From contig CALFZO010000006.1 in NCBI GenBank assembly GCA_937952305.1, forward strand, positions 136,558 to 200,557: a stretch of DNA of 64,000 nt. The letters are read 5' to 3'. Numbering within the stretch: the first letter of the stretch is position 1; each line of letters opens with the position of its first letter. Below, in pieces: positions 7,761-39,619 of the stretch. Origin of the DNA: an uncultured Anaerolineales bacterium. GTDB taxonomy: Bacteria; Chloroflexota; Anaerolineae; Anaerolineales; UBA6663. Below the pieces are notes generated by a model. That model was given only the letters and a program-made list of their open reading frames with translations. It did not search any database and was not told the DNA's origin. The position numbers and the translations under genes were made by a program.

Positions 7761-8933
7761 CTACGGCCGCTCGCCCAGGATCACCTGCACGTCCTGGCGT
7801 TCACCCCCGCGGATCACCGTCAGCGTCACGGCGTCACCCGGCCGCTTGTTGTTGATCAGGTAGCTCATCAAATCGCCGAGCACGCGCACCTCGCGGCCGT
7901 CCACGGCCACGATCAGATCGCCGTCCCCATTGAACCCGCTGAAGCTGTCCGAGGCCGAGTCCGGCTGCAGGCCGGCCTGGTCGGCCGGGCCGCCGGCCGT
8001 GACCGTGGTTACGTAGGTGCCGCTGGCCTGCGGCAGGTCCAACTGCTCTTGCAGTGAGAGCGACAGCTCCGGCAGGCTGGAGATGCCCAGATACGGATAG
8101 ATGAACTGGCCCTCGGAAATCAGGTAGGGCACCACCTGACGAACGGTGTTGGCGGCCACGGCGTAGCCGACGCCGGCGCCGATGCCGGTCTCGGTGGCGA
8201 TGGCGCGGTTGATGCCGATCACCTCGCCGCTCAAGTTGAGCAGCGGGCCGCCGGAGTTGCCGGGGTTGATGGGCGCGTCCGTCTGCAGGACGTCCGGCGC
8301 CGTGAAGCGGCCGCCGCCGCCTGGGGCGGTGCGATTGCTGCTCAGCGTGCGCCCGGTGCCGGAGATGATGCCGAGCGTCATCGTGCCGGCCTCCCCGAAC
8401 GGGTTGCCGATGGCGATGGCGCGCTGGCCGACGCGCACCTGGTCTGAGTCGGCCAGGACCAGCGGAGTCACATCCGGCGGGATCTCGTCCACCTTAACGA
8501 CTGCCAGGTCGCTGTCTGGGTCGGTGCCCAGCACCCGGCCGCGCGTCTTCAGCCCGGACGGAAAATCCACCTCGATGCTGGTGGCGCCGTCGACGACGTG
8601 CTGGTTGGTAACGATGTGGCCGTCCAGGTCGTACAAGAAGCCGGAGCCCTGGCCGCCGCCGTCGGCGGTCTCCACCAGGAAGGACACCACCGCCGGGTTG
8701 ACGCGGGCGTACAGGTCGATCAGGGCGTCTTCCTCAGACGAGGTGATCGTGAGATTGGTCTGCGGCGCCGCACTGCCGTCCGTGCCCAGCTGCGGCGCGG
8801 GCACGAGCTGGGTGATGACGACGGGCACCGCGGTGGGCTGCGGCGCCGCCGTGGGCGCCAAGCCGCTGCAAGCCAAACCAGCCAGCGCCAAAGCGGTCAC
8901 GGCGAGGGCCGGGAAACGGACAGACGAACGCAT
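7761..8933 (-). CDS. S1C (HtrA/DegP-type) serine protease with C-terminal PDZ domain
   Basis: 390 aa with a signal/lipobox-like N-terminus (LALAGLACSG). Catalytic motifs are TNQHVV, DLAVVKV and GNSGGPLLN, followed by a PDZ-like C-terminus. Confidence 0.9.
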   Translation of the reverse strand: MRSSVRFPALAVTALALAGLACSGLAPTAAPQPTAVPVVITQLVPAPQLGTDGSAAPQTNLTITSSEEDALIDLYARVNPAVVSFLVETADGGGQGSGFLYDLDGHIVTNQHVVDGATSIEVDFPSGLKTRGRVLGTDPDSDLAVVKVDEIPPDVTPLVLADSDQVRVGQRAIAIGNPFGEAGTMTLGIISGTGRTLSSNRTAPGGGGRFTAPDVLQTDAPINPGNSGGPLLNLSGEVIGINRAIATETGIGAGVGYAVAANTVRQVVPYLISEGQFIYPYLGISSLPELSLSLQEQLDLPQASGTYVTTVTAGGPADQAGLQPDSASDSFSGFNGDGDLIVAVDGREVRVLGDLMSYLINNKRPGDAVTLTVIRGGERQDVQVILGERP

Positions 8934-9039
8934 AAGGCCTCCTCAAAGACGCGGCCAAGCCAACCGGGCGGCCGCGTTGTTGTTAATCTAGCGCGGCGAG
9001 ATAAAAGCGGGGTGAGAGTTGGCGTTGTGGGCGGAAAGA

Positions 9040-9969
9040 CTAACCGCCGTGGCGGCGCAGAGCGGCCAACTCCTTGTAGAGCTGGCGTTCCCGGTCGGTG
9101 AGCTGCGTCGGGATGCGCACCACGACGCGGGCGAAGAGGTCGCCGGCAGTGCCGGGCTCGCGCAGCCGCGGCATGCCGCGGCCGGCCAGGCGGAAGGTCT
9201 TGCCGGATTGGGTCTCGGGCGGGATCGAGAGGACGACGTCGCCGGCCAGGGTGGGCACCCGCGCGTCGCCGCCCAGCACGGCCGTGTAGACGTCGACGGG
9301 GACATCCACGCGCAGGTCATCGCCGTCGCGCTCAAAGCGGTCGTGCGCGCGCACGGCCACGTTCAAGAACAGGTCGCCGGCGGGCTGGCCGAGGCCGCCT
9401 TCACCCTTGATGCGCACCCGGGTGCCGGCGCGCGCGCCCTTGGGGATGCTCACCTCCAGGCGCCGTCCGCCCTTCTGCAGGGTGCGCGTCGCGCCGTGGA
9501 AGGCTTCCTCCAGGGTGATCTCCACCGGCTGCTCGATGTCCTCGCCGCGAAAGCCGGCGCGGCTGCGCGCGCTGCCCGCCTCGCCGAAGCCGCGGCCGCC
9601 GCCGAAGAGCGTGTTAAAGAAATCAGAGAAGCCGCCGGCGCCGCCGAACAGGTCGTTCAGGTCGCGCATATCCACGCGCGAGCCGCCGCCGGACGACCAT
9701 TGCGACCAATCAAAGCCGCCGCCCGGCCGGCCGGCCCGCTCCCACTGCTGGTAGCTGCTGCCGAGCCGGTCATACTTGGCGCGCTTATCGGCATCGCCCA
9801 GGACCTCGTAGGCCTCGTTGATGTCCTTGAAGCGGTCCTCGGCCGCCTTGTCGCCGGGGTTCTTGTCCGGGTGATATTTCTGCGCCAGCTTGCGGTAGGC
9901 GCTCTTGATCTCTTTCTCAGTGGCGTTCTTGCCGACGCCCAGCAGTTGGTAGTAGTCCTTATAGTCCAT
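9040..9969 (-). CDS. DnaJ-class co-chaperone without zinc-finger domain (CbpA-like)
   Basis: 309 aa. The J domain reads [33 protein letters not shown], followed by a G/F-rich region and then directly the DnaJ C-terminal domain. No CxxCxGxG repeats are present. Confidence 0.85.
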
Positions 9970-10068
9970 AGTTGGGCTGGCGCGCCTTGAGGCCGGCGAC
10001 GCCCCTCGGGCCCCGGTTACTGTAGCAGAGAATCGTTGGAGGCGTGTAAGAGGCGCCGGACGGCGGCG

Positions 10069-10596
10069 TCAGTTGGCGCGGCGGTCCACCAGGCGCTGCA
10101 TCAGTTCGATCTGCGACTTGTCGCGCAGTTCGACACCCAGCAGCACGGCGCGCCGGCGCGCGTCAGACAGGAAACCGGCCGGCGCGATCAGCACGGCCCG
10201 CTGCGCGCGCAGCGCATCCCGCGCGGCCGCTAGGGCGTCCACCACAGCGGGCGGCGGCGGCTCGCTGCCGGGCAGGCAGCGCACCAGCGTGCTTTGCGTG
10301 TCTTTCAGGACCACCAGTTGCTCCAGGTCCACGCCCGGTTCGCCGCCGGCCACCACCTCATAACCTTGGGCCTTGTAGTAATCGCGCACCAGCCGCACCA
10401 GATCATCCAGCGACTGGCCGATGTTGCTGCGGCTGGCCCGCTTGGGCGGAACGGGCGTCTCCGCCTGACCCCGCCGCTCCAGCCAGACCCGCACGCCGGC
10501 CACCAGCAACACAAACCCCAGCACCGGCAAGGCGATGGCCAGCAGTGTGCCCAGCGACGGCAGACCCAAAAACGAGTCGCGCAACCAATCCGGCAT
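10069..10596 (-). CDS. Membrane-anchored protein with a restriction-endonuclease-like (Mrr_cat-like) C-terminal domain
   Basis: 175 aa with one N-terminal TM helix (LLAIALPVLGFVLLVAGV). The soluble domain resembles the Mrr-type fold (YYKAQGYEV...GVDL...LVRC). The expected (E/Q)xK is not obvious. Confidence 0.45.
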   Translation of the reverse strand: MPDWLRDSFLGLPSLGTLLAIALPVLGFVLLVAGVRVWLERRGQAETPVPPKRASRSNIGQSLDDLVRLVRDYYKAQGYEVVAGGEPGVDLEQLVVLKDTQSTLVRCLPGSEPPPPAVVDALAAARDALRAQRAVLIAPAGFLSDARRRAVLLGVELRDKSQIELMQRLVDRRAN

Positions 10597-10835
10597 AGTT
10601 CTATTTTATCCAGCCCGCCCGGGAGCGCCCATGCTGCCGGCCCGCCCGCTCTCACCGCCTCCTAACCGCGCGGCTGCGTCCGCCGCCGGCGCCGGAAACG
10701 GTATCCGGCCCCCCGCGCTCCGAGGGATTGCGGAGCCAGGGTGGGACGAATGGGCGATGTTTCCCCAGCCAGAACCGCGCATACTCACGGTGACTGGGGT
10801 GATCGTTCAACAAGCCCGGAGGAGATGCTGTGTTG

Positions 10836-10961
10836 ATGATCGCGGCCCTAATCATTGGGGGGATCATTCTGCTGTTCGTGATGTTGAGCGTCGTCGGCGT
10901 CATCACGCCGAGGCCCGGCGACCAAGAGACCAACGCGAGCGGCCTGATCCACCGCCAGTGA
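10836..10961 (+). CDS. Possible 41-aa single-TM micro-protein
   Basis: Own translation: MIAALIIGGIILLFVMLSVVGVITPRPGDQETNASGLIHRQ. GGAGGAG lies 10-16 nt upstream, and an in-frame GTG at 10830 is an alternative start. It is not in the ORF track because it is too short. Confidence 0.25.
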   Translation: MIAALIIGGIILLFVMLSVVGVITPRPGDQETNASGLIHRQ

Positions 10962-11258
10962 GCTGAGACGCCACAGGCGGACGCCACACAACCTGCCGGG
11001 GCCAAGCCCCGACGGGTCCTTACTTTTTAAGGTAACGCCGGCTGCCTGGACCAGGCCAACGGTCCGGCGCCGCGAATATTGGCATAATATCGCTCCTATT
11101 TTGGGGGTGGCCGGCCTTTTGGGGGCGGGACGCGTCCACTATAATTGCCCCCGCTGACCAGTGCCCGGGTTCCGACGTTGGCAATGGGTCGCTGTGGCCG
11201 GAGGCCAGTCCGCGTGACGAGGCCGACCGGCCGTGTTGCCAGGGCACGAGGGTGAGGC

Positions 11259-12467
11259 ATGAAGAGCACAGGTATCAAGAGTTGGGTGATCGGGAGCGTC
11301 ATCGTATTGGCCGTTGGGGGCGCCAGCTTCTGGGTTGTGCCGAACTGGCCGGAGCGCGTGGGCTGGCGTTGGCAGCAGTTCTGGGCCGGCACACGCCGCG
11401 CCGTGCTGCAGCTGCCAGACACACTGCCCACGCCGGCCGTCGCCGCCGTAGCCACTTCAGCCGCCACGGCCACGCCCCCGCTGACAGCGCCCACCGCCAC
11501 GCCGGAGGCCGCCGCCGCGCTGCCGGCCTACCCGGACCAGATGGAGCTGACCGGCTTCACGCAGGTCTGGCAGAAGGTCAACAACTGCGGGCCGGCCACA
11601 CTGGCGATGGCGCTCAGTTACTGGGGCTGGAAAGGCACGCAGGCGAACACCGCCAATGCCCTTAAGCCGGACCCGAACGACCGCAACGTGGCCCCGGCGG
11701 AGATGGCCGCTTACGCCCAGCGCGTAGGCCTGGGCGCTCTGGTGCGCCAGGGCGGCACCGTGGAGACGGCCAAGCGCCTGGTGGCGGCCGGCTTCCCGGT
11801 GGTGGTGGAGACCAGCCTGGTGCTGCCCGAGCAAGGCTGGGAGGGTCATTACACCTTGGTGACCGGGTACTCCGACCCGCACCAGCAGTTCACAACGCAG
11901 GACGCCCTGCGCGGGCCGAATTTTGTGCAGACTTATGCCGACCTTGAGCGCGACTGGCGCGCCTTTAACTTCACTTACATCGTGCTCTATGCGCCGACCC
12001 GCGAGGCCGAAGTGTTGAACGTGCTGGCGGGTGCCGGCCCGGCCGGCGACGCGCAGCGCGCCGCCGAGCGCGCCCGCGCGGAGACCGCCACGCTGTCCGG
12101 CCAGGATCTGGCTTTCGCCTGGTTCAACCTCGGCTCCAGCCTGGCGGCCAGCGCCGACTGGCCGGCGGCCGCGCAGGCCTACGATCAGGCGCGCCAGATC
12201 GGCCTGCCCTGGCGCATGCTCTGGTATCAGCCCACCCCGCTCGAAACCTACTTCCAGGCCGGCCGGTATCAAGACGTGCTGGACCTGGCGGATGCCACCC
12301 TGGCCCAGGCCGATAACATCGAAGAAGTGCTGTACTGGCGCGGACGCGCGCGCCTGGCCCTGGGCGACCGCGACGGCGCCAGCGCCGATTGGCAGGCGGC
12401 GGCCGCGCTCAACCGCAACTTCACCGCCCCGGCTCAAGCCCTGGCTGAACTGGGGGCAACTCCGTGA
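11259..12467 (+). CDS. C39-like cysteine peptidase domain protein with C-terminal TPR repeats, N-terminal membrane anchor
   Basis: 402 aa with an N-terminal TM helix and a P/T/A linker. Peptidase_C39_2-like motifs are QKVNNCGPATLAMALSYWGW and WEGHYTLVTGYSD. The C-terminus is TPR-like. SD GAGGGTGAGG precedes the ATG. Confidence 0.75.
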   Translation: MKSTGIKSWVIGSVIVLAVGGASFWVVPNWPERVGWRWQQFWAGTRRAVLQLPDTLPTPAVAAVATSAATATPPLTAPTATPEAAAALPAYPDQMELTGFTQVWQKVNNCGPATLAMALSYWGWKGTQANTANALKPDPNDRNVAPAEMAAYAQRVGLGALVRQGGTVETAKRLVAAGFPVVVETSLVLPEQGWEGHYTLVTGYSDPHQQFTTQDALRGPNFVQTYADLERDWRAFNFTYIVLYAPTREAEVLNVLAGAGPAGDAQRAAERARAETATLSGQDLAFAWFNLGSSLAASADWPAAAQAYDQARQIGLPWRMLWYQPTPLETYFQAGRYQDVLDLADATLAQADNIEEVLYWRGRARLALGDRDGASADWQAAAALNRNFTAPAQALAELGATP

Positions 12468-13816
12468 CCGAGACCGCGCCCCGCGCCGCCAAGCTGGACC
12501 TGAACACGGCCACGCCCGCAGAACTGGCGGGCCTGCCCGGCCTGACCCCGGCGTTAGCCGAGCAGATCGTGGCGTACCGGCCGTTCACGGCCACTAAGGA
12601 ATTGCTGCGCGTCCCCGGCCTCGAGTTCGAGCTCTTTGAACAGCTCAAGCGGCGCGTTAAGGTCGGTCGGCCGCGCGCCGCCGCGCCCCGCGCCCCGCGC
12701 AAACGCCAGCCCCGCCGCGCGCCGGCTGAGGCCCCGCCGCCGGTCGCCGTCCACGTCCACGTCAACGCCGCCGCCCCCTACGAGACGACGACGTTCCGGA
12801 CCACCGCCGCGCCGCCGCCGCCCATCTCGGAAGTCATCGAGCCGCTGGTCATCGCCGAGCCGGCCCCGCGCACGCCGTTCGGGCGGCAGCTGGCGGCCAC
12901 GCCGACCCGCGCCCTGGTGCCGCTGGGCGCGCAGGTGACCACGGCCCTGTTCGAAAGCTACGCCGGCCCGCGCGTGGTCTTTGCCCTGTTCTCGTTCACG
13001 CTGGCCGCCATCGCGCTGGCGTTCGCCACCGGACGGCTCAGCCTGCGCTGGGACCCCGCCCCGCCCACCAGCGCCCCGGCCGTGATCGCCGCCGCCGCCA
13101 CGCCCACGCTGGAGCCGCTGGCGACGCAGGTCAGCCAGGCCGTGGCCGCCACCCTGGCCGCGCAGCCCAGCCCCACGGCGCCGCCGGAACCAACCGCCAC
13201 GGCCGACCTCCCCGCCGCCACGCCCACGACGGCTTTCATTTCCAACTCCGGGCTGGATGGCGTCGGCGCGCAGATCTTCAACGAGACCTTCATCCCGGCC
13301 GGTTATTGGTCCGTGGGCGAGACCGACTTCAGCAACATCTTTGTGGACACCGGCACCCTGGCCATCCTGGTGAAGACGCCGGGCTCGATCGCCTGGGCCT
13401 TCAACGGCTACTCGGCCGAGGACTTCTATTTTCAAGGCCTGCTGCGCCTGGGCGCGTGCCAGCTCGGCGATTACGGCGGCCTGATCTTCCGCGGCCAGGA
13501 CGATAACAACCTGTATCTCTTCGGCCTGTCCTGCGACGGCCGTTACCGGCTGGTGGAGCGCGCGGGCGGCGAGTTCCGCTTCCTGATCGACTTCACCTTC
13601 ACGCCGGAGGCCAGCACCGGCTCCGGTGCCACCAACTTGCTGGCCGTGCGCGCCGAGGGCCGCAAGCTCAGCCTGTACATCAACGATCAATTTGTGAACG
13701 CCGTCGAAGATGTCGCGCCGAGCCGCGGCTTCTTTGGCGCTTTCGCCAAGGCCGGGACCACCACCAACCTGCGGGTCGATCTAGACGACCTGTCCGCCTG
13801 GTCGCTGGGCCCCTAG
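12464..13816 (+). CDS. ComEA-type helix-hairpin-helix / single-TM / beta-sandwich (lectin-like) protein, paralog 1
   Basis: 450 aa. The N-terminal HhH_3-like region reads LDLNTATPAELAGLPGLTPALAEQIVAYRPF...LLRVPGLEFELFEQL. A TM helix (VVFALFSFTLAAIALAFA) and P/T/A linker follow. The C-terminal ~190 aa resemble a concanavalin-like fold. The GTG start overlaps the upstream stop (GTGA). Confidence 0.7.
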   Translation: MTETAPRAAKLDLNTATPAELAGLPGLTPALAEQIVAYRPFTATKELLRVPGLEFELFEQLKRRVKVGRPRAAAPRAPRKRQPRRAPAEAPPPVAVHVHVNAAAPYETTTFRTTAAPPPPISEVIEPLVIAEPAPRTPFGRQLAATPTRALVPLGAQVTTALFESYAGPRVVFALFSFTLAAIALAFATGRLSLRWDPAPPTSAPAVIAAAATPTLEPLATQVSQAVAATLAAQPSPTAPPEPTATADLPAATPTTAFISNSGLDGVGAQIFNETFIPAGYWSVGETDFSNIFVDTGTLAILVKTPGSIAWAFNGYSAEDFYFQGLLRLGACQLGDYGGLIFRGQDDNNLYLFGLSCDGRYRLVERAGGEFRFLIDFTFTPEASTGSGATNLLAVRAEGRKLSLYINDQFVNAVEDVAPSRGFFGAFAKAGTTTNLRVDLDDLSAWSLGP

Positions 13817-13830
13817 CGCGTGCGCTCGTC

Positions 13831-15660
13831 ATGTCCAAGACACCTTCACCCCGCATTGTGAATCTCAACTCGGCGCCGCCGGACGCGCTGACGCAGCTGC
13901 CCGGCGTCGGGCCAGCGCTGGCCACCCGCATCGTCGCGGCCCGGCCCTTCGCCAGCGTCCGTGACCTGATCCTCGTGCCCGGCGTCGGCCCGCGCCTGTA
14001 CGCGGCCCTGCTGCCCTATCTGACGCTCGACGACAGCGTCGTGACCGCCGCGCCGGAGCCGGCCGAGCCGACACCGCCCGCCGCTGAACTGGTACCGCCG
14101 GCGCCGCTCACTGAGCCCCCGGCCGGGCCGGAGCGGCCCGCCGACCCGGCGGCGTCCCCGGACATCGCCGAGCCGCCCGCCGATCACGCCAGCCCGCCCG
14201 AGTCGCTCGGGTCCGCGCCGCTCGGATCCGCGCCACCCACTGCGGCACCGGCTGAGGCAGCGCCCAGCCCCGACTCAGCCGAGCCAACGGTTGAACCGCG
14301 CCGCCGACCGCGCCACACGCCGCGCCGCCGGACGGTCCGCTCCGAAACCGAGCCGGCAACACCCTCCGTGCCGGACCCGGCGGCGACAACGCCGGCGGCG
14401 ACAACGCCGGCCCTTGAGCCGGAGACGCCCTTGCTTTCCGCCTCGGCGGAACCAGACGACCTCGACCCGTTCCGGCCAACGCCTGAGCCGCCCGCGCTCC
14501 GGGCGGCGCGCCCGGCCGCCTTCTACAGCGCCCAGGGTCCCTTGGCGCAGGCCGCGCCGGCCTCTGAGCCGGCCAGCCGCACCCGCAACCGACTGCTGGA
14601 AGTGCCGGTGCGCACCCGCTGGCGCGTGATGCTGCTGCTGTTCTACGGCATGATCGCGCTGGCGCTGGTGGGCTTGGCCGCGCTCTTCTACGCGGCCTTC
14701 AACCCCACGCTGGCGCTGTCCCCGGCCGCCACCTCCACAGCGGCGCCCACCGGGACGCTGCCCGAGCCGGCCATCACCGCCGTCGTCGCCGCGCCGCCGT
14801 CGGCCACCCTGGCGCCGAGTGCGACTTCACCCGCGCCCAGCGACACGCCCCTGGCCGTGGCCGCCGGGGAGACCGCCACCTCCGCCGTGACGGCCCCGCC
14901 CAGCGAGACGCGGGCGGCCTCGGCCACGCCCAGCCTCACGCCGACGCCCGCGCCCACCGACACCGTCACGCCGCGGCCCAGCTCCACACTCAGCCCCACC
15001 GCCAGCGCCTCGCCCACCAACACGCTCCCGCCGACGGCGACGGCGACGCCCACCGTCACGGCCACGCCGACCGTGGCGCCCACGGCTCCGGCCGGGGCCG
15101 GCGCGCTGCGCTTCCTGGAGACCTTCGATCCGCCGGAATACTACTGGGGCGTCGGCAACACCAACTTCGGCCGCAGCGTGCTCGGCGACGACGAGCTCCA
15201 GATCCAGGCCGGGCGCGCCGCGCTGCTGTACGTCTTCGGCAGCATGGAGCCGTCCGCCGATTTCTATTACCAGGTCACCACGCGCGCCGGCGCCTGCGGC
15301 GAGGGCGACAGCTACGGCCTGCAGGTGCGCGCCGCGGACGACTTCAACTACTACCTCTTCGGCGTGACCTGCGAAGGCCGCCTGCGCATCCAGGTGCTCA
15401 AGGACGGCCAGTACACAGTCCTCGTCAACAGCGATCAGCCCGACCGCAACGTCCGCACCGGCCCGGACGCCATCAACGTACTGGCGGTGCGCGCCCAGGG
15501 CCGGCAGTTCCAGTTCTACGCCAACGGCCGCCTGCTGACGACCCTGACCGACCAGTCACTGACGGCCGCCGGCAAGTTCGGCGTGTACGCGCGCTCGTTC
15601 CGGTCCGCCAGCTTCGAGGTCCACTTCGACGACGTCGCCGCCTGGGACACCGCCGAGTAA
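13831..15660 (+). CDS. ComEA-type helix-hairpin-helix / single-TM / beta-sandwich (lectin-like) protein, paralog 2
   Basis: 609 aa. The HhH_3-like region reads VNLNSAPPDALTQLPGVGPALATRIVAARPF...LILVPGVGPRLYAAL. A long P/A/E-rich region, an Arg-rich stretch and a TM helix (VMLLLFYGMIALALVGLAALFYAAF) follow, then a P/T/S linker. The C-terminal domain aligns to paralog 1 (GDSYGLQVRAADDFNYYLFGVTCEGRLRI versus GDYGGLIFRGQDDNNLYLFGLSCDGRYRL). Confidence 0.7.
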   Translation: MSKTPSPRIVNLNSAPPDALTQLPGVGPALATRIVAARPFASVRDLILVPGVGPRLYAALLPYLTLDDSVVTAAPEPAEPTPPAAELVPPAPLTEPPAGPERPADPAASPDIAEPPADHASPPESLGSAPLGSAPPTAAPAEAAPSPDSAEPTVEPRRRPRHTPRRRTVRSETEPATPSVPDPAATTPAATTPALEPETPLLSASAEPDDLDPFRPTPEPPALRAARPAAFYSAQGPLAQAAPASEPASRTRNRLLEVPVRTRWRVMLLLFYGMIALALVGLAALFYAAFNPTLALSPAATSTAAPTGTLPEPAITAVVAAPPSATLAPSATSPAPSDTPLAVAAGETATSAVTAPPSETRAASATPSLTPTPAPTDTVTPRPSSTLSPTASASPTNTLPPTATATPTVTATPTVAPTAPAGAGALRFLETFDPPEYYWGVGNTNFGRSVLGDDELQIQAGRAALLYVFGSMEPSADFYYQVTTRAGACGEGDSYGLQVRAADDFNYYLFGVTCEGRLRIQVLKDGQYTVLVNSDQPDRNVRTGPDAINVLAVRAQGRQFQFYANGRLLTTLTDQSLTAAGKFGVYARSFRSASFEVHFDDVAAWDTAE

Positions 15661-17053: not shown

Positions 17054-17136
17054 GCGCCGGCGGCTGTGGTCATGGCGGAGGCGGCGCGGGCGCGCCGGCG
17101 CTAAGCTGAGGGTAGATGGCAGAAGGGAGAGACCCG

Positions 17137-18129
17137 ATGACGACCCAGACCAGTTCCGATCCGCTCGCCGCGCTCGAGCCGCTGCTGCAGGATCCCGCCG
17201 TCGTCGAGATCATGATCGACAGCCCCGAGCGCGTGCTGGTGGAACGGCACGGCCGCCTGGAAGAGGCCGGCGTGCGCTTGGCCTCAGCGGAGGCGCTGCG
17301 CGCCCTGGTGGACGCCGTGCTGGCGCTGGGCGGCGAGGCCTTCCGGCCCGGCCAGACCGTCTGCGACACGCGCCTGGAGGATGGCACGCGCGTCCTGGCC
17401 GTGCTGCCGCCGACCGCCGTGGGCGGCCCGTACTTGGTGCTGCGCAAGTTCTACACGCGCGGCATGACCTGGCCGCGCCTGCTGGAATATGGCTCGCTCA
17501 GCCCGGCCGTTTACGATCTGCTGCAGAGCGCCCTGGCCGCCCGGCGCAATCTCCTGGTGACCGGCGGCACGGGCAGCGGCAAGACCACGGTCCTCAACCT
17601 GCTCGCTGAGAGCGTGCCGCCGGACGAACGCGTCATCGTGGTGGGCGAGCGCGCCGACCTGCCGGTGGAGAATCATCCGCGCCGCCTGCACCTCGAGCCG
17701 CACCGCCGCACCGGCCTGAGCTATACGGACCTGCTGTTGACCGCGGCCAAGATGCGGCCGGACCGGCTGGTGTGCGCCGAGTTCAGCGGCCCGGAAGCCT
17801 TGCACGCCCTGCAGCTCGCCAGCACCGGCTACGACGGCAGCCTGATGAGCCTGCACGCCACCGGCCCGGAGGATGCGCTGGCCCGGCTGGAGGCGCTCTG
17901 TCTGATGGCGAATGTGGGGCTTGGTTTGAGCGAGATCCGCGGCGTGATCGCGGCGGCCGTGCACGTGATCACGTGCCAGCGACGCCTGGCGGACGGCGCG
18001 CGCAAGCTGACCGAGATCGTCGAGCTGCGCGGCCTGGAGAACGACCGCTACCTCCTCCAGCCGCTCATGCGCTACGACGAGGCCAGCCGCCAGTTTGAGT
18101 TATTCGGCCGGCCGAGCTGGGCGCGTTGA
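17137..18129 (+). CDS. CpaF/TadA-family (type II/IV secretion) ATPase-like protein
   Basis: Walker A is VTGGTGSGKTTVLNLL, with a T2SSE-like core. I prefer ATG 17137 (AAGGGAGAG upstream) over the in-frame ATG at 17116 listed in the ORF track. Confidence 0.8.
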   Translation: MTTQTSSDPLAALEPLLQDPAVVEIMIDSPERVLVERHGRLEEAGVRLASAEALRALVDAVLALGGEAFRPGQTVCDTRLEDGTRVLAVLPPTAVGGPYLVLRKFYTRGMTWPRLLEYGSLSPAVYDLLQSALAARRNLLVTGGTGSGKTTVLNLLAESVPPDERVIVVGERADLPVENHPRRLHLEPHRRTGLSYTDLLLTAAKMRPDRLVCAEFSGPEALHALQLASTGYDGSLMSLHATGPEDALARLEALCLMANVGLGLSEIRGVIAAAVHVITCQRRLADGARKLTEIVELRGLENDRYLLQPLMRYDEASRQFELFGRPSWAR

Positions 18130-29271: not shown

Positions 29272-32200
29272 ATGCGCACTCGGCTTTTCTTTGCCTGCCT
29301 GCAAATCGTCGTCGTCGCCGCCGTCCTGATCCTGGGCTGGCCGTCCGTCCCGTCCGCGCGCGCCGACGAGCCCGCCCCGCTGGACGCCTCGCCCACGCTG
29401 GAGGGCACGCTCACCGCGCCGCCGTCCACGGAGACGCCGACGCCCGACCCCGTGACCGCGACTCTTACCGCGGAGCCGGCGGCGACCGGGACCGCTCTGC
29501 CGGAGGGGACTCTGCCGGCGACTGAGGCCGGCAGCCCGACCCCGGCCGCGACCATTGACCCTGGCGCCACCCTAACGGGCGCGCCCGACCCGGCCACGCC
29601 CACGACCACAGTGGCGGCCGCAACCACGGAGCCGGCCGCCACGGCGACAGACCCAGCCACCCCAGCCACCGCGACGGATTCACCGCCGCAGAGCGCCATG
29701 CCGTCCGCGACGCCCATGCCGAGCATAGTCGCGCCCGAGAGCGCCACACCTTCGGCCACGCCCACACTAACCGGGACCGCGACCTTCACGCCCACACCGA
29801 GCGCCACAGCGTCGCCGACGTTCACGCCGACGCCGACGCCATTACCGGCCTCATCCGCCACACCCGCTGTCCTCTCGCCGGAACCGCCGCAGGCTGAGGC
29901 GCCCGCCTCGCGCGCGGGGACGCCGTCCACGACGCTGGTGATCAGCCAGGTCTACGGCGGCGGCGGCAACGCGGGCGCGCCGTACCGCAACGACTTCATC
30001 GAGTTGCGCAACCTCGGGCCGAGCGCCGTGGACCTGGGCGGCTGGTCCGTGCAGTACGCGCCGGCCACCAGCGGCAGCTGGCAGAGCGTGGCGCTGGCCG
30101 GCCTGGTCCAGCCCGGCAGCACCTACTTGCTGCAGTTGGGCTCCGGCGGCGGCGAAGGCGCGGCCCTGCCGGCGCCGGAGGCCGCGCACAGCCTGAACAT
30201 AGCCGCGTCCGCGGGCAAGGTCGCCCTGGTGTCCGAGGCCGCGCCCCTGGCCGGCAGCTGTCCGGACAGCGCCCTCGTCGTCGATTTCCTGGGCTACGGC
30301 GTCACGGCCAGTTGTTACGAGACTGCCCCGACCGGCAATCTGAGCGCCGGCGCCGCCGCCCACCGGATGGGCCCCGCCGACACGGACCACAACGCCGTCG
30401 ACTTCGGCGTGGCCGCGCCCAGCCCGCACGGAAACGTCGTCAGCCCGCCGACCTCAACGACGACCCCGACCCCGACGCCAACGCCAACGGTCACCCCCAC
30501 CCTCCCGGTGACCGTCACCGCCACCGCGACGCCGACCGCGTCTTCCACCATTTCGCCGGCCGCGCCCGGCAGTGTCCTGATCAACGAGGTCGTCACCGAT
30601 CCGCAACAGGATTGGAGCGGCGGCGGCTTCGGCCCGGTGCCGGGCGCCGGCCCGGTCAGCGACACCGACGAATGGATCGAGCTGCTGATCCTGGCCGACG
30701 GCCTGGACCTGACGGCGTGGACGCTGGAGCTGCGCGATGGCTCGGACGTGAGCGGCGATCTGACGGAGGCCGGGGCGTTTCAAGTGGTGCGTTACCTCGG
30801 CGCCGGGTCGGCGGCGGCGACGCGCGCCGGCGACCGGTTGGTCCTCGGCAACGTGCGCGGCAGCGGCACGCTCAACAACGCCGTCACCGTTCAACTTCTC
30901 GACAGCCACGGCGGCCTGATCGACGCCGTGACACTCGGCGGCGGGGCCCCCAGCGGCGACGCCGACAGCGCCGCGGAGGAGGCCGTCGCGCGGCGGCCGG
31001 ACGGCGCCGGCCTGTGGGTGCGCCAGGCAGCCACGCCCGGTCAGGCGAATGATCTCGCGCCGCAGCCGACCCCGACGGCCACGGCCACGGCGACCGTCAC
31101 GCCCACCGCGGCGGCCACGCCCAGCGCTTACCCGGCGGGCGCGGTCCTGATCAACGAGGTCGCCTGGGCGGGCACAGCCGCCTCGGCCAACGACGAGTGG
31201 CTGGAGCTCTTCAACCCCGGCCCGATCCCCATCGCCCTCGCCGGCTGGCGTCTGAGCGACGGCGGCGATATCGACCTCAGCTTCCCGCCTGGCCTGGCTA
31301 TCCCGGCCGGCGGCTTCCTGCTCTTGGAACGCACCGACGACTCGACCATCGCCGATGTGCCGGCCGACCTGCTCTACTCCGGCGGTCTGAGCAACGGCGG
31401 CGAGACTCTGGTTCTGCGGGACGCGACCGGCAGCGTCATCGACATCGCCGCCGGGGCGGGCGGCTGGCCGGCCGGGGACGCCGCGCTGTTCGCGACGATG
31501 GAACGCGCCGGCGGCGGCTGGCGCACCCAGGCCGGGGCCGCCACGGGGCACGCCGCCGATGGCAGCCCGCTGCGCGGGACGCCGCGCGGGCTCAACTCGG
31601 CCTACCGGCCGGCGCCTACGCCGGTGAGCTATCCCGCCACGGTGCTGCTCAACGAAGTCCTGCCAGCGCCCGGCGACGGGTCCGACGAATTCGTGGAAGT
31701 TTTCAACACCGGCGCGGAAGCCGTGGACGTCTCCGGCTGGCAATTGGATGACTCCGCCGGCGGCAGCGCGCCCTTCCATCTCCCCGCCGGCACTGTGGTG
31801 GGGCCGCGCGCGCTGCTGGCCTTCTCCAAGTCCGAGACCGGCCTGGCCTTCAACAATTCTGGCGACACGGCGCGGCTGCTCCATCCCGACGGCGGTGTGG
31901 CGGATGAGTTGGTCTACACCCGCAGCCCCGGCGTGGACGTCAGTTGGGCGCGGGTGCCGGACGGTGGCGCCTGGGCGGCCACCACGCAGGTGACGCCGGG
32001 CCTGCCCAACACCGCCGCGCCGCCGGCGGAGGGCGGGCCGCCGGCCGACTCGGGCGCGCCGGAACAGGAAGCCGCCAGCGTGCCGATCGGTGTCTTCCGC
32101 ACCTGGCCGGCCGGCGCCTGGGCCACCCTGACCGGCCGCGTGACTGTGCCTGCACCGCTGTTTGGGCCGCGCCAGATCTACCTCCAGGATGAGACCGGCG

Positions 32201-32730
32201 GCATCGCGGTCTACCTGGGGCGCGGCGACTGGCCGGCGCTGCCGGTGGGGCAGTCTGTGACCGTGCTCGGTTATTCGCGCGTGCGGAGCGGGCGCTTCGA
32301 ACTCTACGTACGCACGCTGTTCCAGGTGGACGCGCCGCCCATGGAAGGCGGCGCCGGGATTGCGCCAGCACCGGGGCCGGTGGGGCCAGGGACAGCGGGA
32401 TCACTGCTGACCCTGACCGGGCGCGTGGTCAAGCTTGAGTCGACGGCCTTCTGGTTGGACGCCGGCGCCGGTCCGGTGCGCGTGTTCTTCGCCGCCTCTA
32501 CAGGCGTGCGCCGGCCGAAGGTGGCGCGCGGCGACATCTGGACGGTCACCGGAGTGGTGGTGGAGATGACGGCCACCAAAACGCGCGCGGCCGGCTACCA
32601 GTTGCAGCCGCGCTTCGCCGCAGATGTGCAGCCGGTGCGCGCGCGCTACGTGGCCGCGCCCGAGGCGGAGACGCCGACGCCGCCGGAAGAAACACCCCCG
32701 GACGAGGCGGCCCCGTCGCCAACGCCTTAG
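29272..32730 (+). CDS. Secreted multi-domain protein: four lamin-tail-domain (LTD) repeats plus two C-terminal OB-fold-like domains, P/T-rich linkers
   Basis: 1152 aa with a signal peptide (MRTRLFFACLQIVVVAAVLILGWPSVPSARA). LTD signatures are ISQVYGGGGNAGAPYRNDFIELRNLG, VLINEVVTDPQ, VLINEVAWAGTAASANDEWLELFNPG and VLLNEVLPAPGDGSDEFVEVFNTG. The C-terminal ATLTGRVTVPAPLFGPRQIYLQDETGGIAVYL and LTLTGRVVKLESTAFWLDAGAGPVRVFF are OB-like. Confidence 0.8.
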   Translation: MRTRLFFACLQIVVVAAVLILGWPSVPSARADEPAPLDASPTLEGTLTAPPSTETPTPDPVTATLTAEPAATGTALPEGTLPATEAGSPTPAATIDPGATLTGAPDPATPTTTVAAATTEPAATATDPATPATATDSPPQSAMPSATPMPSIVAPESATPSATPTLTGTATFTPTPSATASPTFTPTPTPLPASSATPAVLSPEPPQAEAPASRAGTPSTTLVISQVYGGGGNAGAPYRNDFIELRNLGPSAVDLGGWSVQYAPATSGSWQSVALAGLVQPGSTYLLQLGSGGGEGAALPAPEAAHSLNIAASAGKVALVSEAAPLAGSCPDSALVVDFLGYGVTASCYETAPTGNLSAGAAAHRMGPADTDHNAVDFGVAAPSPHGNVVSPPTSTTTPTPTPTPTVTPTLPVTVTATATPTASSTISPAAPGSVLINEVVTDPQQDWSGGGFGPVPGAGPVSDTDEWIELLILADGLDLTAWTLELRDGSDVSGDLTEAGAFQVVRYLGAGSAAATRAGDRLVLGNVRGSGTLNNAVTVQLLDSHGGLIDAVTLGGGAPSGDADSAAEEAVARRPDGAGLWVRQAATPGQANDLAPQPTPTATATATVTPTAAATPSAYPAGAVLINEVAWAGTAASANDEWLELFNPGPIPIALAGWRLSDGGDIDLSFPPGLAIPAGGFLLLERTDDSTIADVPADLLYSGGLSNGGETLVLRDATGSVIDIAAGAGGWPAGDAALFATMERAGGGWRTQAGAATGHAADGSPLRGTPRGLNSAYRPAPTPVSYPATVLLNEVLPAPGDGSDEFVEVFNTGAEAVDVSGWQLDDSAGGSAPFHLPAGTVVGPRALLAFSKSETGLAFNNSGDTARLLHPDGGVADELVYTRSPGVDVSWARVPDGGAWAATTQVTPGLPNTAAPPAEGGPPADSGAPEQEAASVPIGVFRTWPAGAWATLTGRVTVPAPLFGPRQIYLQDETGGIAVYLGRGDWPALPVGQSVTVLGYSRVRSGRFELYVRTLFQVDAPPMEGGAGIAPAPGPVGPGTAGSLLTLTGRVVKLESTAFWLDAGAGPVRVFFAASTGVRRPKVARGDIWTVTGVVVEMTATKTRAAGYQLQPRFAADVQPVRARYVAAPEAETPTPPEETPPDEAAPSPTP

Positions 32731-36289: not shown

Positions 36290-39200
36290 ATGCTCATGCG
36301 TACAGACTACCATCGGATTAGCCAAACGGTTCGGGCCGGCCTGCTGATCAGCGCGGTCTGCCTCTGGCTGGGCGTCCTGCCACAGCCAGCCGCGGCTCTC
36401 AGCGGCGTCCACCAGGTCCCGGCCAACCTGTTGACCAACGGCGGCTTCGAGGCCGGCTCCCTCACTGGCTGGGAGGTCACCGGCAGCCTGTCCGTCACCG
36501 CCGCCGCCGCCGCCACGGGCGCTTACGGCGCGTACATGCCCACCACCGGCCGCCTGGACCAGGTCTTCGCCACCACGCCCGGCCAGGTCTACACCGTCAC
36601 CGCCCGGCTGCGCATCGACCAGCAGATCGTCACGCCCACGTGGGGCGGTCTGCGCTTTCAGGTAGTCAACTCCAGTTGGTCGCAGCGCGCGGCCAGCCCC
36701 TACTACACCACGGCCAACTCGCCGGCCAGCGTGTGGACATTCGTCCAGTTCAGCTTCACGGCCAACACCGCCACCTCGCGCCTGGTCTATGAGAACTTCA
36801 GCGGCGGCGGCCAGTTCCGGGCCTCGGCCGACGACCTCCAGGTCAGCGCCGCGGCGTCCGCGGCGACGGCCACCGCCCTCCCGGCGACGGCCACGCCGTC
36901 CCACACACCCACCGCGCCGGCGCCAACGGCGGCCCCGTCTTCCACCTCCAGCGCGCCGACCGCGACGCCGGCCAGCCCGCTGCCCCCCACGGCCACGCCC
37001 AGCCCCGCCGGGGCGCCGGTCTTCCTGCCGATCGGCGTCGGCTACTCGGACGTGATCCCGCACCAGCTGGTGCGCGCCGGCGACGATCGCGTGTACGCCT
37101 TCGCGGCGCAGCCGTACACCTCGGCCCTGCGCGCTTACTGGACCGCGAATCCCGGTCTGCCGGCCGCCGGCGCCGTCTTCAACACGCTCCTGGTGAACGA
37201 CTCCAGCAACCTCTTGTCCGTCGACGCCGCCTATGACGGCGCCGCGTACATCCACGTGCTGGTCAACACCAACGCCGGCGTCCTCAAAGACTACGTCTTC
37301 GACCTCGCCACGCACACGTTCCGGACGCCGGTGACCCTGGCCAGCGGCAACCCCACCGTCGGCGGCGATTACATCGGCACCAGTGGTGTCTCGGGCCTGT
37401 TCGACCAGAAAGGCGAGCTGCACCTGGCGTACTGGTCCGCCAACCAGCACATCACCCACCAGGCCTTCACCTACGACGCGGCCGCCCATACGCTGACCGC
37501 GGTCGGCGCCGCGGTCCAGGTGGACGCGCTCGGCAGCGCCAATCATCCGGTCCTGGCGATCTCGCCGCTCGATCAATCAGTCACGGTGGCCTGGGTGTCC
37601 CAAGCCACGGCGCCGGCCCGCATCCTGGCCCGGTCCCGCACCGCCCTCGGCAGCTGGGGCGCCGTCGAGACCGTCAGCCTGGCGCCGGTCTGGACCAGCA
37701 CCAACGCGGGCATCAACATTGATCAGGGGCCGAGCTTGCTGATCGACACGGCCGGCACCCGGCACCTGCTTTACATCGAGGACTGGGACACTTCTGGCGA
37801 CTACGGCCGCGTGCATTACGCCGCCAGCACCGGCGGCGGCTGGGCCGACCAGGCTCTGCCGGCCTACTCGCACGACCCGGCCCTGGCCGTGGATGGCGCC
37901 AACCGTCTGTACCTGATAGGTCACGGCCACCCCAACAACGCCCAGCTACAGCCCGGCAACCCGGCCTGCCGCAGCATGGACGAGATGTGCCTGATGCCAC
38001 GCAACAGCGACGGCACCTGGGGGCCCACGCAGCTCTTCGCGCCGCGGCCCGGCCTCGAGTCGTTTGACGCCAGCCCGTCGGTCAAGTGGTCCGTCGTCGG
38101 CTTCAACCGCCCGGAGGCGCTGGAGTTCCTGTTCTTCTCGACACCCTACAACGCCCCGCTGCTCTACTACGGCCGTTTTGAAACCGCCTCGAGCGCGACG
38201 CCCACGCCGCTGCCGACGAACACCGCCACGGCGGCGCCTTCGCAGACGCCGTTACCGACGAACACGCCAACACCGCTACCCACGGCTGCGGCTTCAGCGA
38301 CGCCTTCGCAAACGCCGCCGCCGACAAACACGCCAACACCGCTGCCCACGAATACGGTGTCAGCGACGCCTTCGCAAACGCCGCTGCCGACGAACACGCC
38401 GCCGGCCACGGCTCTCCCAGACCTGATCTTCGCTGATGATTTCGAGGCCGGGTCGCTGCTGGCCTGGACCAGCGCCGTCACCGACAGCGGCGACCTGCGC
38501 GCGGCGTCGGCCGCCGCCCTGGTCGGAGCCAACGGCTTGCAGGCCGTCATCGACGACAACACCGCCGTCTACGTGACCGACGACAACCCTAACGCCGAGC
38601 GCCGTTACCGGGTCCGCTTCTACTTCGACCCCAACTCGGTCACCATGGCCAACAACGACCTGCACGTCCTCCTGTACGGGTACTCGGGCGCCTCCACGGC
38701 CGTCCTGCGGGTGGAGTTCCGGCGCTCGAGCAGCGCCTACCAGTTGCGCGCCGGCCTGCTCAACGACGGCACGAGCTGGACCTCCACCAGCTACGTCACC
38801 GTCAGCGACGCCCCGCACGTCGTCGAGCTCGACTGGCGCGCCTCGGCCGCGGCCGGCGCCAACTCCGGCGGCCTGACCTTCTGGATCGACGGCACCCAGC
38901 GCGCCAACCTGACCGGCACCGACAACGACACCCGCCGCCTGGACCGCGTCCGCCTCGGCGCCGTGACCGGGATCGACGCCGGCACGCGCGGCACCGTCTT
39001 CTTCGACGCCTTCGAGGCGCGCCGCGAGAGCTACATCGGTCCGGCCGCCGGCCCCACGCCCACCGCGACACCCACCACCGTTCCACCGACCGCGACGAGC
39101 CCGGCGCCGACGCTCACGCCCACCGCCAGCGGCGTTCCGCCCACGGCCACTCCGCCCGCGCCCACACCGACCGCCCCGCCGGCCGCCGCCAATCTGCTGA

Positions 39201-39619
39201 ACAACGGCAGCTTTGAGACCGGCTCGCTCGCCGGCTGGGAGGACTACGGCGGCATGTCGGTGCCGGTTTCGGCCGCCTACACCGGCGCCTTTGGCGCCTA
39301 CATGCCCAGCGACGGCCGCATCGACCAGGTCTTCGCCACCACCCCCGGCCAGGTCTACACCGTCACCGCCCGCCTGCGCATCGACCAACAGACCGTCGCG
39401 CCCACCTGGGGCGGCCTGCGCGTCCGCGTGGTCAATGCCACTTGGATGCAGCTCGCCACCAGCCCGCACTTCACACTCGCCAACTCGCCGGCCGGCACGT
39501 GGACGCTCGTCCAGTTCACGTTCACGGCCAACACCGCCACCACCCGCCTCAATTACGAAAACTTCAGCAACGGCGAATATCAGGCCTCGGCCGACGCGTT
39601 CAGCGTGACGGGGCCGTGA
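36290..39619 (+). CDS. Large secreted protein: CBM_4_9-like domain, beta-propeller-like core, P/T repeat linker, LamG/concanavalin-like domain, second CBM_4_9-like domain
   Basis: 1109 aa with a signal peptide. [20 protein letters not shown] and [20 protein letters not shown] open the two CBM-like domains. The centre is rich in WxxxxxV/Y propeller-like repeats. Confidence 0.75.
36557..36655 (+). repeat. Intragenic duplicated segment, copy 1 (N-terminal CBM-like domain)
   Basis: This 99-nt stretch differs from 39323-39421 at only 7 positions (aligned by eye). Confidence 0.8.
38198..38405 (+). repeat. About 3 copies of a 66-nt tandem repeat encoding a P/T-rich linker
   Basis: CCTTCGCA recurs at 38237, 38303 and 38369 (period 66). 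The protein repeat is PSQTP(L/P)[10 protein letters not shown]..(A/V)SAT. Confidence 0.8.
39323..39421 (+). repeat. Intragenic duplicated segment, copy 2 (C-terminal CBM-like domain)
   Basis: See copy 1. The protein reads [23 protein letters not shown] in both copies. Confidence 0.8.

Follow-up and report, generated by a model that had tools for sequence, protein, structure and literature searches.

Tandem proteins of an Anaerolineales bacterium combining an N-terminal ComEA-type HhH domain, one transmembrane helix and a C-terminal ConA-like β-sandwich

Two known domains on one membrane-anchored chain

The genes P1 and P2 lie in tandem within a 64,000-nucleotide stretch of DNA from an uncultured Anaerolineales bacterium (positions 136,558 to 200,557 of contig CALFZO010000006.1, assembly GCA_937952305.1). 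This whole stretch is called the window below, and its own numbering is used for the genes. P1 and P2 are built of known parts, an HHH_3-type helix-hairpin-helix (HhH) domain and a ConA-like carbohydrate-binding module (CBM), in a combination that belongs to no described family. The N-terminal HhH domain, predicted to be cytoplasmic, is followed by a linker, a single transmembrane (TM) helix, a Pro/Thr-rich spacer and a β-sandwich predicted to lie outside the cell. The architecture as a whole is matched by no Pfam, NCBIfam or PADLOC model, and a full-text literature search returned no description of it or of a cytoplasmic membrane-tethered HhH in Chloroflexota. An earlier note on this DNA, made from the letters alone, had likewise not recognised the architecture, and our search of the profile libraries for a known family covering it found none.

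The window is a chromosomal segment with a GC content of about 70%. The nearest genome match in our species-level genome scan, which covered 185,579 species, is Anaerolineales bacterium H61_599, and an identical copy of the P2 protein is present on a metagenome contig. Both genes lie on the forward strand at the positions given by the earlier note, and P1 opens with GTG in the list of open reading frames (ORFs). In pairwise alignments, the C-terminal ~185 residues of P1 and P2 share 36% identity (E = 3e-31) and the HhH domains share 44% (E = 4e-10), a similarity far beyond chance level; the two proteins are paralogues. The full-length AlphaFold2 (AF2) model of P1 contains the HhH domain at residues 11-70 (pLDDT 91-97), a disordered region at 81-168, a helix at 169-188, a second disordered region at 195-263 and the β-sandwich at 270-447 (pLDDT about 90). 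The layout proposed in the earlier note is thereby upheld by the ORF list, Pfam, hydropathy and AF2. It comprised two tandem ORFs without signal peptide, each with an N-terminal HhH domain, a low-complexity linker, a single TM helix, a spacer rich in Pro/Thr/Ala and a C-terminal domain (~185 residues here) that aligns between the two proteins. The motifs that it quoted are present, with the correction that P1 reads GDYGGL and not GDYYGL.

The HHH_3 matches of both proteins exceed the Pfam gathering score. The known structures found with the family HhH profile include human EEPD1 (E = 1.8e-22), the Thermus protein 2DUY, which is related to ComEA (E = 2.7e-17), ComEA itself (8DSS, E = 1.3e-15; also 8DFK) and, more weakly, PsbU; GspK is likewise among the matches of the HhH searches. 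In addition, residues 10-58 of P2 are 67% identical to the canonical C-terminal HhH domain of an exported ComEA from a Deinococcales genome. Both observations are in line with the ComEA-type assignment made earlier. A HMMER search of the whole library with the HhH profile gave only multi-repeat HhH proteins as top matches and was of no use for an architecture survey. The two hairpins of P1 are degenerate in the alignment (PGLT and PGLE), and an Arg-rich patch follows directly after the domain at residues 66-90. In three related loci, three HHH_3 copies stand in tandem at the N-terminus of the second paralogue, before its TM helix (L019 5623..7677, L020 8627..10759 and L022 8524..10614). In a fourth (L018, 9578..11503), the cytoplasmic linker of the P2-type protein is made of repeated KPDSKP..SHVEDKEE units.

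The AF2 model of the P1 C-terminal domain is an all-β sandwich (pLDDT 94.4). Its best Foldseek matches are the CBM66 module of the Bacillus subtilis levanase SacC (4AZZ/4B1M, E = 3-4e-9, TM-score 0.71-0.82; for 4AZZ, E = 4e-9 and TM-scores 0.74/0.82), followed by the DUF1080 structure BT3469, ERGIC-53 and GH16 enzymes; the DUF1080 structure 4JQT is matched at E = 5e-7. Moreover, the C-terminal sequence profile finds CBM66 in the PDB at E = 1e-7 to 3e-8. Pfam scores for 14 C-terminal domain sequences stay below threshold (best E 0.0013 for PF06439 and 0.00035 for PF13385; DUF7257 is also sub-threshold). The P2 sandwich has a weak Laminin_G_3 match (E = 0.0056), and a Pfam search with the P1 domain of the window returned no PF06439 or PF13385 match. 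Because the homology to CBM66 is significant and the Pfam scores lie under gathering, the domain is a relative within the ConA superfamily and not a member of a curated family. This agrees with the lectin-like β-sandwich proposed in the earlier note. The fold and a detectable sequence homology are common to the P1/P2 sandwich and to CBM66 and DUF1080 (PF06439), but identity is only 16-19%, and the pair of Cys residues described below is specific to the P1/P2 family. Furthermore, CBM66 is attached to an enzyme, whereas the P1/P2 module is attached to a membrane anchor. The spacer before the P2 sandwich consists largely of four residues (fractions of Ala 0.23, Thr 0.23, Pro 0.20 and Ser 0.12). 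Just N-terminal to the first β-strand, the family alignment contains a G-x-G motif that is invariant or nearly so.

Predicted membrane topology

Each protein has only one strongly hydrophobic segment (Table 1), and 170-265 residues, Arg clusters included, precede it. A hidden signal peptide is excluded, because neither ORF can be extended upstream (no other start codon lies between each start and the in-frame stop that precedes it) and the start position is common to all homologues in the alignment. The juxtamembrane region has the family consensus R-R-L-x-x-[IV]-P-x-[RK]-T-R-[WY]-R, which gives 5-7 Lys/Arg residues in the 15 positions before the helix in P2-type proteins and in the single-copy members described below. 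Lys and Arg are absent from the 25 residues after the P2 helix. The earlier note had counted five Arg before this helix and none after it; the stretch RTRNRLLEVPVRTRWR has six, and the second half of the statement stands. Across 50 family members, the mean number of Lys plus Arg in the 15 residues on each side of the helix is 4.1 on the N-terminal side versus 0.96 on the C-terminal side, and the N-terminal side is the richer one in 46. The local charge bias of P1 in the window is ambiguous, with one such residue before the helix and two after it, and this counts against the orientation proposed here. The ambiguity is removed by the P1 orthologues of other lineages, which carry VRREIRRR.

The relatives of the C-terminal domain point in the same direction. 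Stand-alone homologues of about 215 residues have a signal-like N-terminus in 105 of 115 cases and a lipobox-like Cys in 70. The domain also forms the ectodomain of the TM Ser/Thr kinases P0014, P0016 and P0020, and is repeated three times in the secreted, signal-peptide-bearing protein P0015. Its Cys pair is invariant in all 16 family members compared and absent from the outgroups, a conservation that would fit a disulfide in an oxidising compartment. The absence of a signal peptide, the Lys/Arg bias, the exported homologues and the Cys pair are several independent lines that support a predicted N-in/C-out (type II) topology for P1 and P2, opposite to that of ComEA. They agree with the earlier note, which had put the HhH domain in the cytoplasm and the sandwich outside.

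Table 1 Features of the P1/P2 locus (window coordinates)
Feature	Position	Strand	Details
Small membrane peptide gene	10830..10961	+	43 aa, single TM, MLMIAALIIGGIILLFVMLSVVGVITPRPGDQETNASGLIHRQ; strong ribosome-binding site GGAGGAG at 10818
C39_2 papain-like cysteine peptidase with C-terminal TPR	11259..12467	+	Peptidase_C39_2 E 1.7e-15; TPR_2 E 8e-8 (Pfam)
P1	12464..13816	+	450 aa, bitopic; HhH, linker, TM, spacer, β-sandwich (ORF, Pfam, paralogue alignment, AF2)
P1 HHH_3 domain	12488..12658	+	aa 9-65; Pfam PF12836 E 8.5e-16; AF2 pLDDT 91-97, four helices
P1 TM helix	12968..13033	+	aa 169-190; Kyte-Doolittle peak 2.32; AF2 helix 169-188
P1 ConA-like β-sandwich, extracellular (predicted)	13265..13804	+	aa 268-447; invariant Cys332 and Cys357
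P2	13831..15660	+	609 aa, bitopic, P1 paralogue
P2 HHH_3 domain	13855..14025	+	aa 9-65; Pfam PF12836 E 5.6e-13; two canonical G-V-G hairpins
P2 basic juxtamembrane motif TRNRLLEVPVRTRWR	14581..14625	+	aa 251-265; conserved in family alignment
P2 TM helix	14626..14700	+	aa 266-290; Kyte-Doolittle peak 2.52
P2 Pro/Thr/Ala/Ser-rich spacer, extracellular (predicted)	14701..15093	+	aa 291-421; conserved P-A-G-A-G-A-L at end
P2 ConA-like β-sandwich, extracellular (predicted)	15094..15648	+	aa 422-606; invariant Cys489 and Cys514

Distribution, gene context and a sister family

The full HhH-TM-sandwich architecture was found in about 18 species-level genomes, all of them Chloroflexota (Anaerolineales/Anaerolineae), and in 13 protein clusters. 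It occurs in two genomic forms. In the cassette form, the gene for a C39_2 peptidase with TPR comes first, the P1-type gene second and the P2-type gene third. This order is kept in the window and at loci L003/4/7, L005/10, L008, L018/23, L019, L020 and L022, and the cassette is conserved in at least seven species-level lineages at identities down to 30-47%. The single-copy form (L002, L006, L009 and L011-L017) consists of one gene, which resembles P2 most closely and lacks a C39 neighbour. The L002 locus is syntenic with the window, with an Mrr-like gene upstream and AzlC, AzlD, luciferase-like, MFS_2 and M19 genes downstream; AzlC/AzlD directly follow the single-copy gene there.

In the window, the C39_2, P1 and P2 genes form a tight, translationally coupled operon: the C39 stop overlaps the P1 start by 4 nt (GTGA), and P2 starts 14 nt past the P1 stop. 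The C39_2 protein carries NNCGPATL and GHYTLV motifs, and its catalytic domain is predicted to be extracellular, since the protein has an N-terminal TM anchor and a Pro/Thr/Ala linker. Upstream of the operon lies the gene for a 43-residue membrane peptide; in a comparison with L003, no other part of the 660-bp intergenic region is as well conserved. In about 10 Anaerolineales lineages, homologous ORFs for peptides of 39-43 residues precede the HhH-TM-sandwich gene on the same strand; in the single-copy loci L006, L011, L012, L013, L015 and L017, they stand directly before it, at a distance of 150-250 bp. The peptide has no match in Pfam and is a candidate accessory subunit. The peptidase partner, the small peptide and the HhH-TM-coiled-coil family described below were missing from the earlier note, which was incomplete in this respect.

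AT-rich short elements are located 5' of the C39 gene at about 11075..11150 and include the 13-mer CCACTATAATTGC with a perfect TATAAT. The same 13-mer recurs in the homologous intergenic region of L003 with a different spacing, and it may be the -10 box of a cassette promoter. A promoter and terminator scan was uninformative, with 0 promoters and 2 terminator-like sites, the latter within expectation, and neither the Rfam nor the tRNA scan gave a match in the window.

A larger Chloroflexota family with a related layout was found in the same genome scan (loci L026-L062, L081, L085 and L086). It occurs in Anaerolineae, Thermoflexus and Chloroflexia and includes a cultured member, Bellilinea caldifistulae (L055, 7980..8894 within the stretch 7980..10552). 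Like P1 and P2, these proteins start with an HHH_3 domain, which is followed by a disordered linker, basic juxtamembrane residues and a single TM helix. Unlike P1 and P2, their outside part is a coiled coil of ~110 residues that ends in FLDGLRxLL, in place of the spacer and sandwich, and their operon partners are TM-coiled-coil proteins. At 15 of 22 loci, the gene that directly follows codes for a TM-coiled-coil protein with a RARLYLSQSNFGLAR-type domain, a further TM-coiled-coil gene comes after it at some loci, and at L081, L085 and L086 the HhH domain is fused directly to the RARLYLSQSNFGLAR-type protein. About 45 clusters cover the coiled-coil query nearly full-length under source names such as ComEA, Lpp, prefoldin and hypothetical. 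The JGI annotation calls these proteins "competence protein ComEA", and for P1/P2 relatives pipelines use "HhH domain-containing" or, wrongly, "ComEA". Because this wider family shares the HhH and TM layout, the cytoplasmic membrane-tethered ComEA-type HhH is a design that recurs in Chloroflexota and is apparently undescribed, of which we infer P1 and P2 to be the glycan-module variant.

Other genes surround the locus. The gene on the reverse strand at 10069..10596, which is kept upstream of the locus in L003 and L002, encodes a small protein that combines a TM helix at its N-terminus with an Mrr_cat restriction-endonuclease-like domain. The gene directly after P2 (15752..17053, forward strand) encodes a soluble Ser/Thr kinase fused to a C-terminal LuxR/GerE helix-turn-helix (HTH; Pkinase E = 1e-43, GerE E = 1e-18). 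It is followed by an orphan TadA/VirB11-type secretion ATPase (17116..18129, forward strand; T2SSE E = 2.5e-30; TIGR03819 196 bits, under the cut-off) with no other pilus or secretion genes adjoining and an MFS transporter next to it on the opposite strand. The kinase and the ATPase were rejected as partners, because most cassette lineages lack them and so does the syntenic L002 locus with its single-copy gene; together with the transporter they are regarded as lineage-specific insertions. PBP2 and Maf, both near the locus in L002 and L005, were also considered, but this link was rejected, as it is not conserved and both are absent from the window. PADLOC gave no match for the C39 protein, P1 or P2, and a defence system is therefore not indicated. 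Further downstream on the forward strand, the window encodes two probable surface proteins, one of 1152 residues with three Lamin Tail Domains (29272..32730; E = 2e-50) and one of 1109 residues with a C-terminal CBM_4_9 (36290..39619).

Possible function and related systems

Our leading proposal, which we put forward tentatively, is that P1 and P2 form a trans-envelope unit coupling DNA to glycan. HhH domains contact the DNA backbone without sequence specificity. The cytoplasmic (HhH)2 domain, on a disordered tether of 100-200 residues and helped by the Arg-rich patches next to it, would hold double-stranded DNA at the membrane independently of sequence, with P2 as the competent DNA binder and P1 perhaps as a weakened partner. 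Binding of double-stranded DNA by the HhH is suggested by the near-identity to true ComEA domains and by the triplication in some lineages. On the other side of the membrane, the Pro/Thr-rich spacer would be long enough to cross the wall and to present the ConA-like module, and the sandwich, probably disulfide-braced, could bind a wall, sheath or environmental glycan. The substrate of the C39_2 enzyme is presumably the same extracellular material or else the P1/P2 spacers. Such a unit would anchor the nucleoid, or membrane-proximal DNA, at a site that an extracellular glycan marks. The analysis shows which domains are present and in what order, the predicted topology, the operon and its conservation, whereas the binding of DNA and of glycan and the coupling role are inferred.

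Several points weigh against this proposal. The second Gly of both hairpins is replaced in P1-type and single-copy members (GLT/GLE and GVD/GLT, that is, G-h-[T/D/E/N]), and a net negative charge is found on some of these HhH domains. DNA binding can therefore not be assumed for every member of the family. In addition, some HHH_3 relatives, for example PsbU and GspK, do not bind DNA, and the neighbourhood contains no chromosome-segregation, division or competence genes.

In a different, less likely explanation, P1 and P2 would be a wall-remodelling scaffold. The HhH would then be a protein-contact module that binds no DNA, comparable to the HTH with which RodZ binds MreB; P1 and P2 would position or regulate C39_2 as a peptidoglycan peptidase, and the sandwiches would bind wall glycan. 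Pfam detected neither the XRE-type HTH nor the DUF4115 domain of RodZ in P1 or P2. The layout is similar, with a small helical domain inside, a basic juxtamembrane region, one TM helix, a Pro/Thr-rich spacer and a β-rich domain outside. The degenerate hairpins, the protein contacts made by the HHH_3-like domains of PsbU and GspK, the PBP2-type gene nearby in L002 and L005, and the sister family with its extracellular coiled coil and following TM-coiled-coil genes are all consistent with a scaffold. Also in its favour, Peptidase_C39_2 is listed as a catalytic domain in phage lysins of Gram-positive hosts (bioRxiv 10.1101/2021.02.23.432618). The P2-type proteins, however, retain both canonical G-h-G hairpins together with the close identity to a true ComEA HhH, and triplication of the HhH is typical of DNA binders. 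Moreover, the PBP neighbour is neither conserved nor present in the window, and no cytoplasmic partner was identified.

Improbable, in our judgement, is a one-component-like sensor with regulated proteolysis, in the manner of ToxR, CadC or RsgI. Here binding of a glycan outside the cell would lead the C39-like peptidase to cut the spacer, perhaps at G-x-G, and the HhH part would be released or altered, changing DNA transactions. In favour of this reading, the ectodomain is also fused to Ser/Thr kinases and thus behaves like an input module that can be exchanged, the operon includes a gene for an extracellular peptidase, and the invariant G-x-G is placed just before the first β-strand. C39 peptidases cut after Gly-Gly-type motifs. 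The G-x-G is, however, equally conserved in single-copy lineages where no C39 gene adjoins, so its role as a cleavage site stays speculation. A defined regulon is hard to envisage for an HhH without sequence specificity, and neither a linked site-2 protease nor a winged-helix or anti-sigma domain was found.

The likeness to ToxR and CadC, which the earlier note had drawn, holds for the predicted topology and fails for the type of DNA-binding domain. ToxR, CadC and TcpP are bitopic N-in/C-out proteins whose inner domain binds nucleic acid and whose outer domain binds a ligand; P1 and P2 are predicted to share this layout. Their OmpR-type winged helix is promoter-specific, whereas the HhH is non-specific and bears no sequence relationship to it; an OmpR/PhoB-type winged helix (Trans_reg_C) was not found in P1 or P2 with Pfam or NCBIfam at E ≤ 0.1. 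A sequence-specific, ToxR-type promoter regulator is unlikely for these two reasons. In the RsgI anti-sigma factors of Clostridium thermocellum, a cytoplasmic effector is connected through one TM helix and a Pro/Thr linker to a carbohydrate-binding module outside. This layout resembles that of P1 and P2, in which the output domain is an HhH; Pfam and NCBIfam detect no anti-sigma domain in them, and no sigma factor gene flanks the cassette.

That P1 and P2 are true ComEA-like DNA receptors with the HhH outside and the sandwich inside is very unlikely: their HhH sequence is nearly indistinguishable from exported ComEA domains, and JGI gives that name to the sister proteins, but the missing signal peptide, the long Arg-containing region before the sole TM helix, the Lys/Arg bias and the overwhelmingly exported homologues of the C-terminal domain all argue for the opposite orientation. 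ComEA shares the (HhH)2 domain type with P1 and P2. Its HhH is C-terminal and exported behind an N-terminal anchor, whereas that of P1 and P2 is N-terminal, predicted to be cytoplasmic, and followed by the TM helix and the CBM-like domain. Against the NCBIfam ComEA models, the two proteins score 28.0-31.4 bits (TIGR01259, cut-off 152.35) and 14.6-28.5 bits (TIGR00426, cut-off 53.1), and no ComEC-type gene occurs in the annotated parts of the window or in the related loci. P1 and P2 are thus not ComEA by predicted location, curated scores or gene context.

If the proposed coupling is true, with the HhH on DNA inside and the ectodomain on glycan outside, P1 and P2 would represent a previously undescribed link between nucleoid and envelope, with non-specific DNA binding as the cytoplasmic "output" of a transmembrane protein. 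A broader idea, which we regard as doubtful, is that P1/P2 and the single-copy and coiled-coil families make up a Chloroflexota-specific trans-envelope class. This class would link chromosomal DNA to extracellular structures, such as wall or sheath glycan or a coiled-coil lattice, and would be tuned or severed by the C39-like peptidase and the 43-residue peptide. By architecture, it would be a bacterial counterpart of the LEM/HeH chromatin tethers of the inner nuclear membrane. The Chloroflexota are filamentous and poorly studied, and their envelope and cell biology are still debated. In metagenome-assembled genomes of this phylum, the "ComEA" label on the sister coiled-coil proteins would wrongly suggest natural competence, and the conserved three- or four-gene cassette provides a concrete, testable unit.

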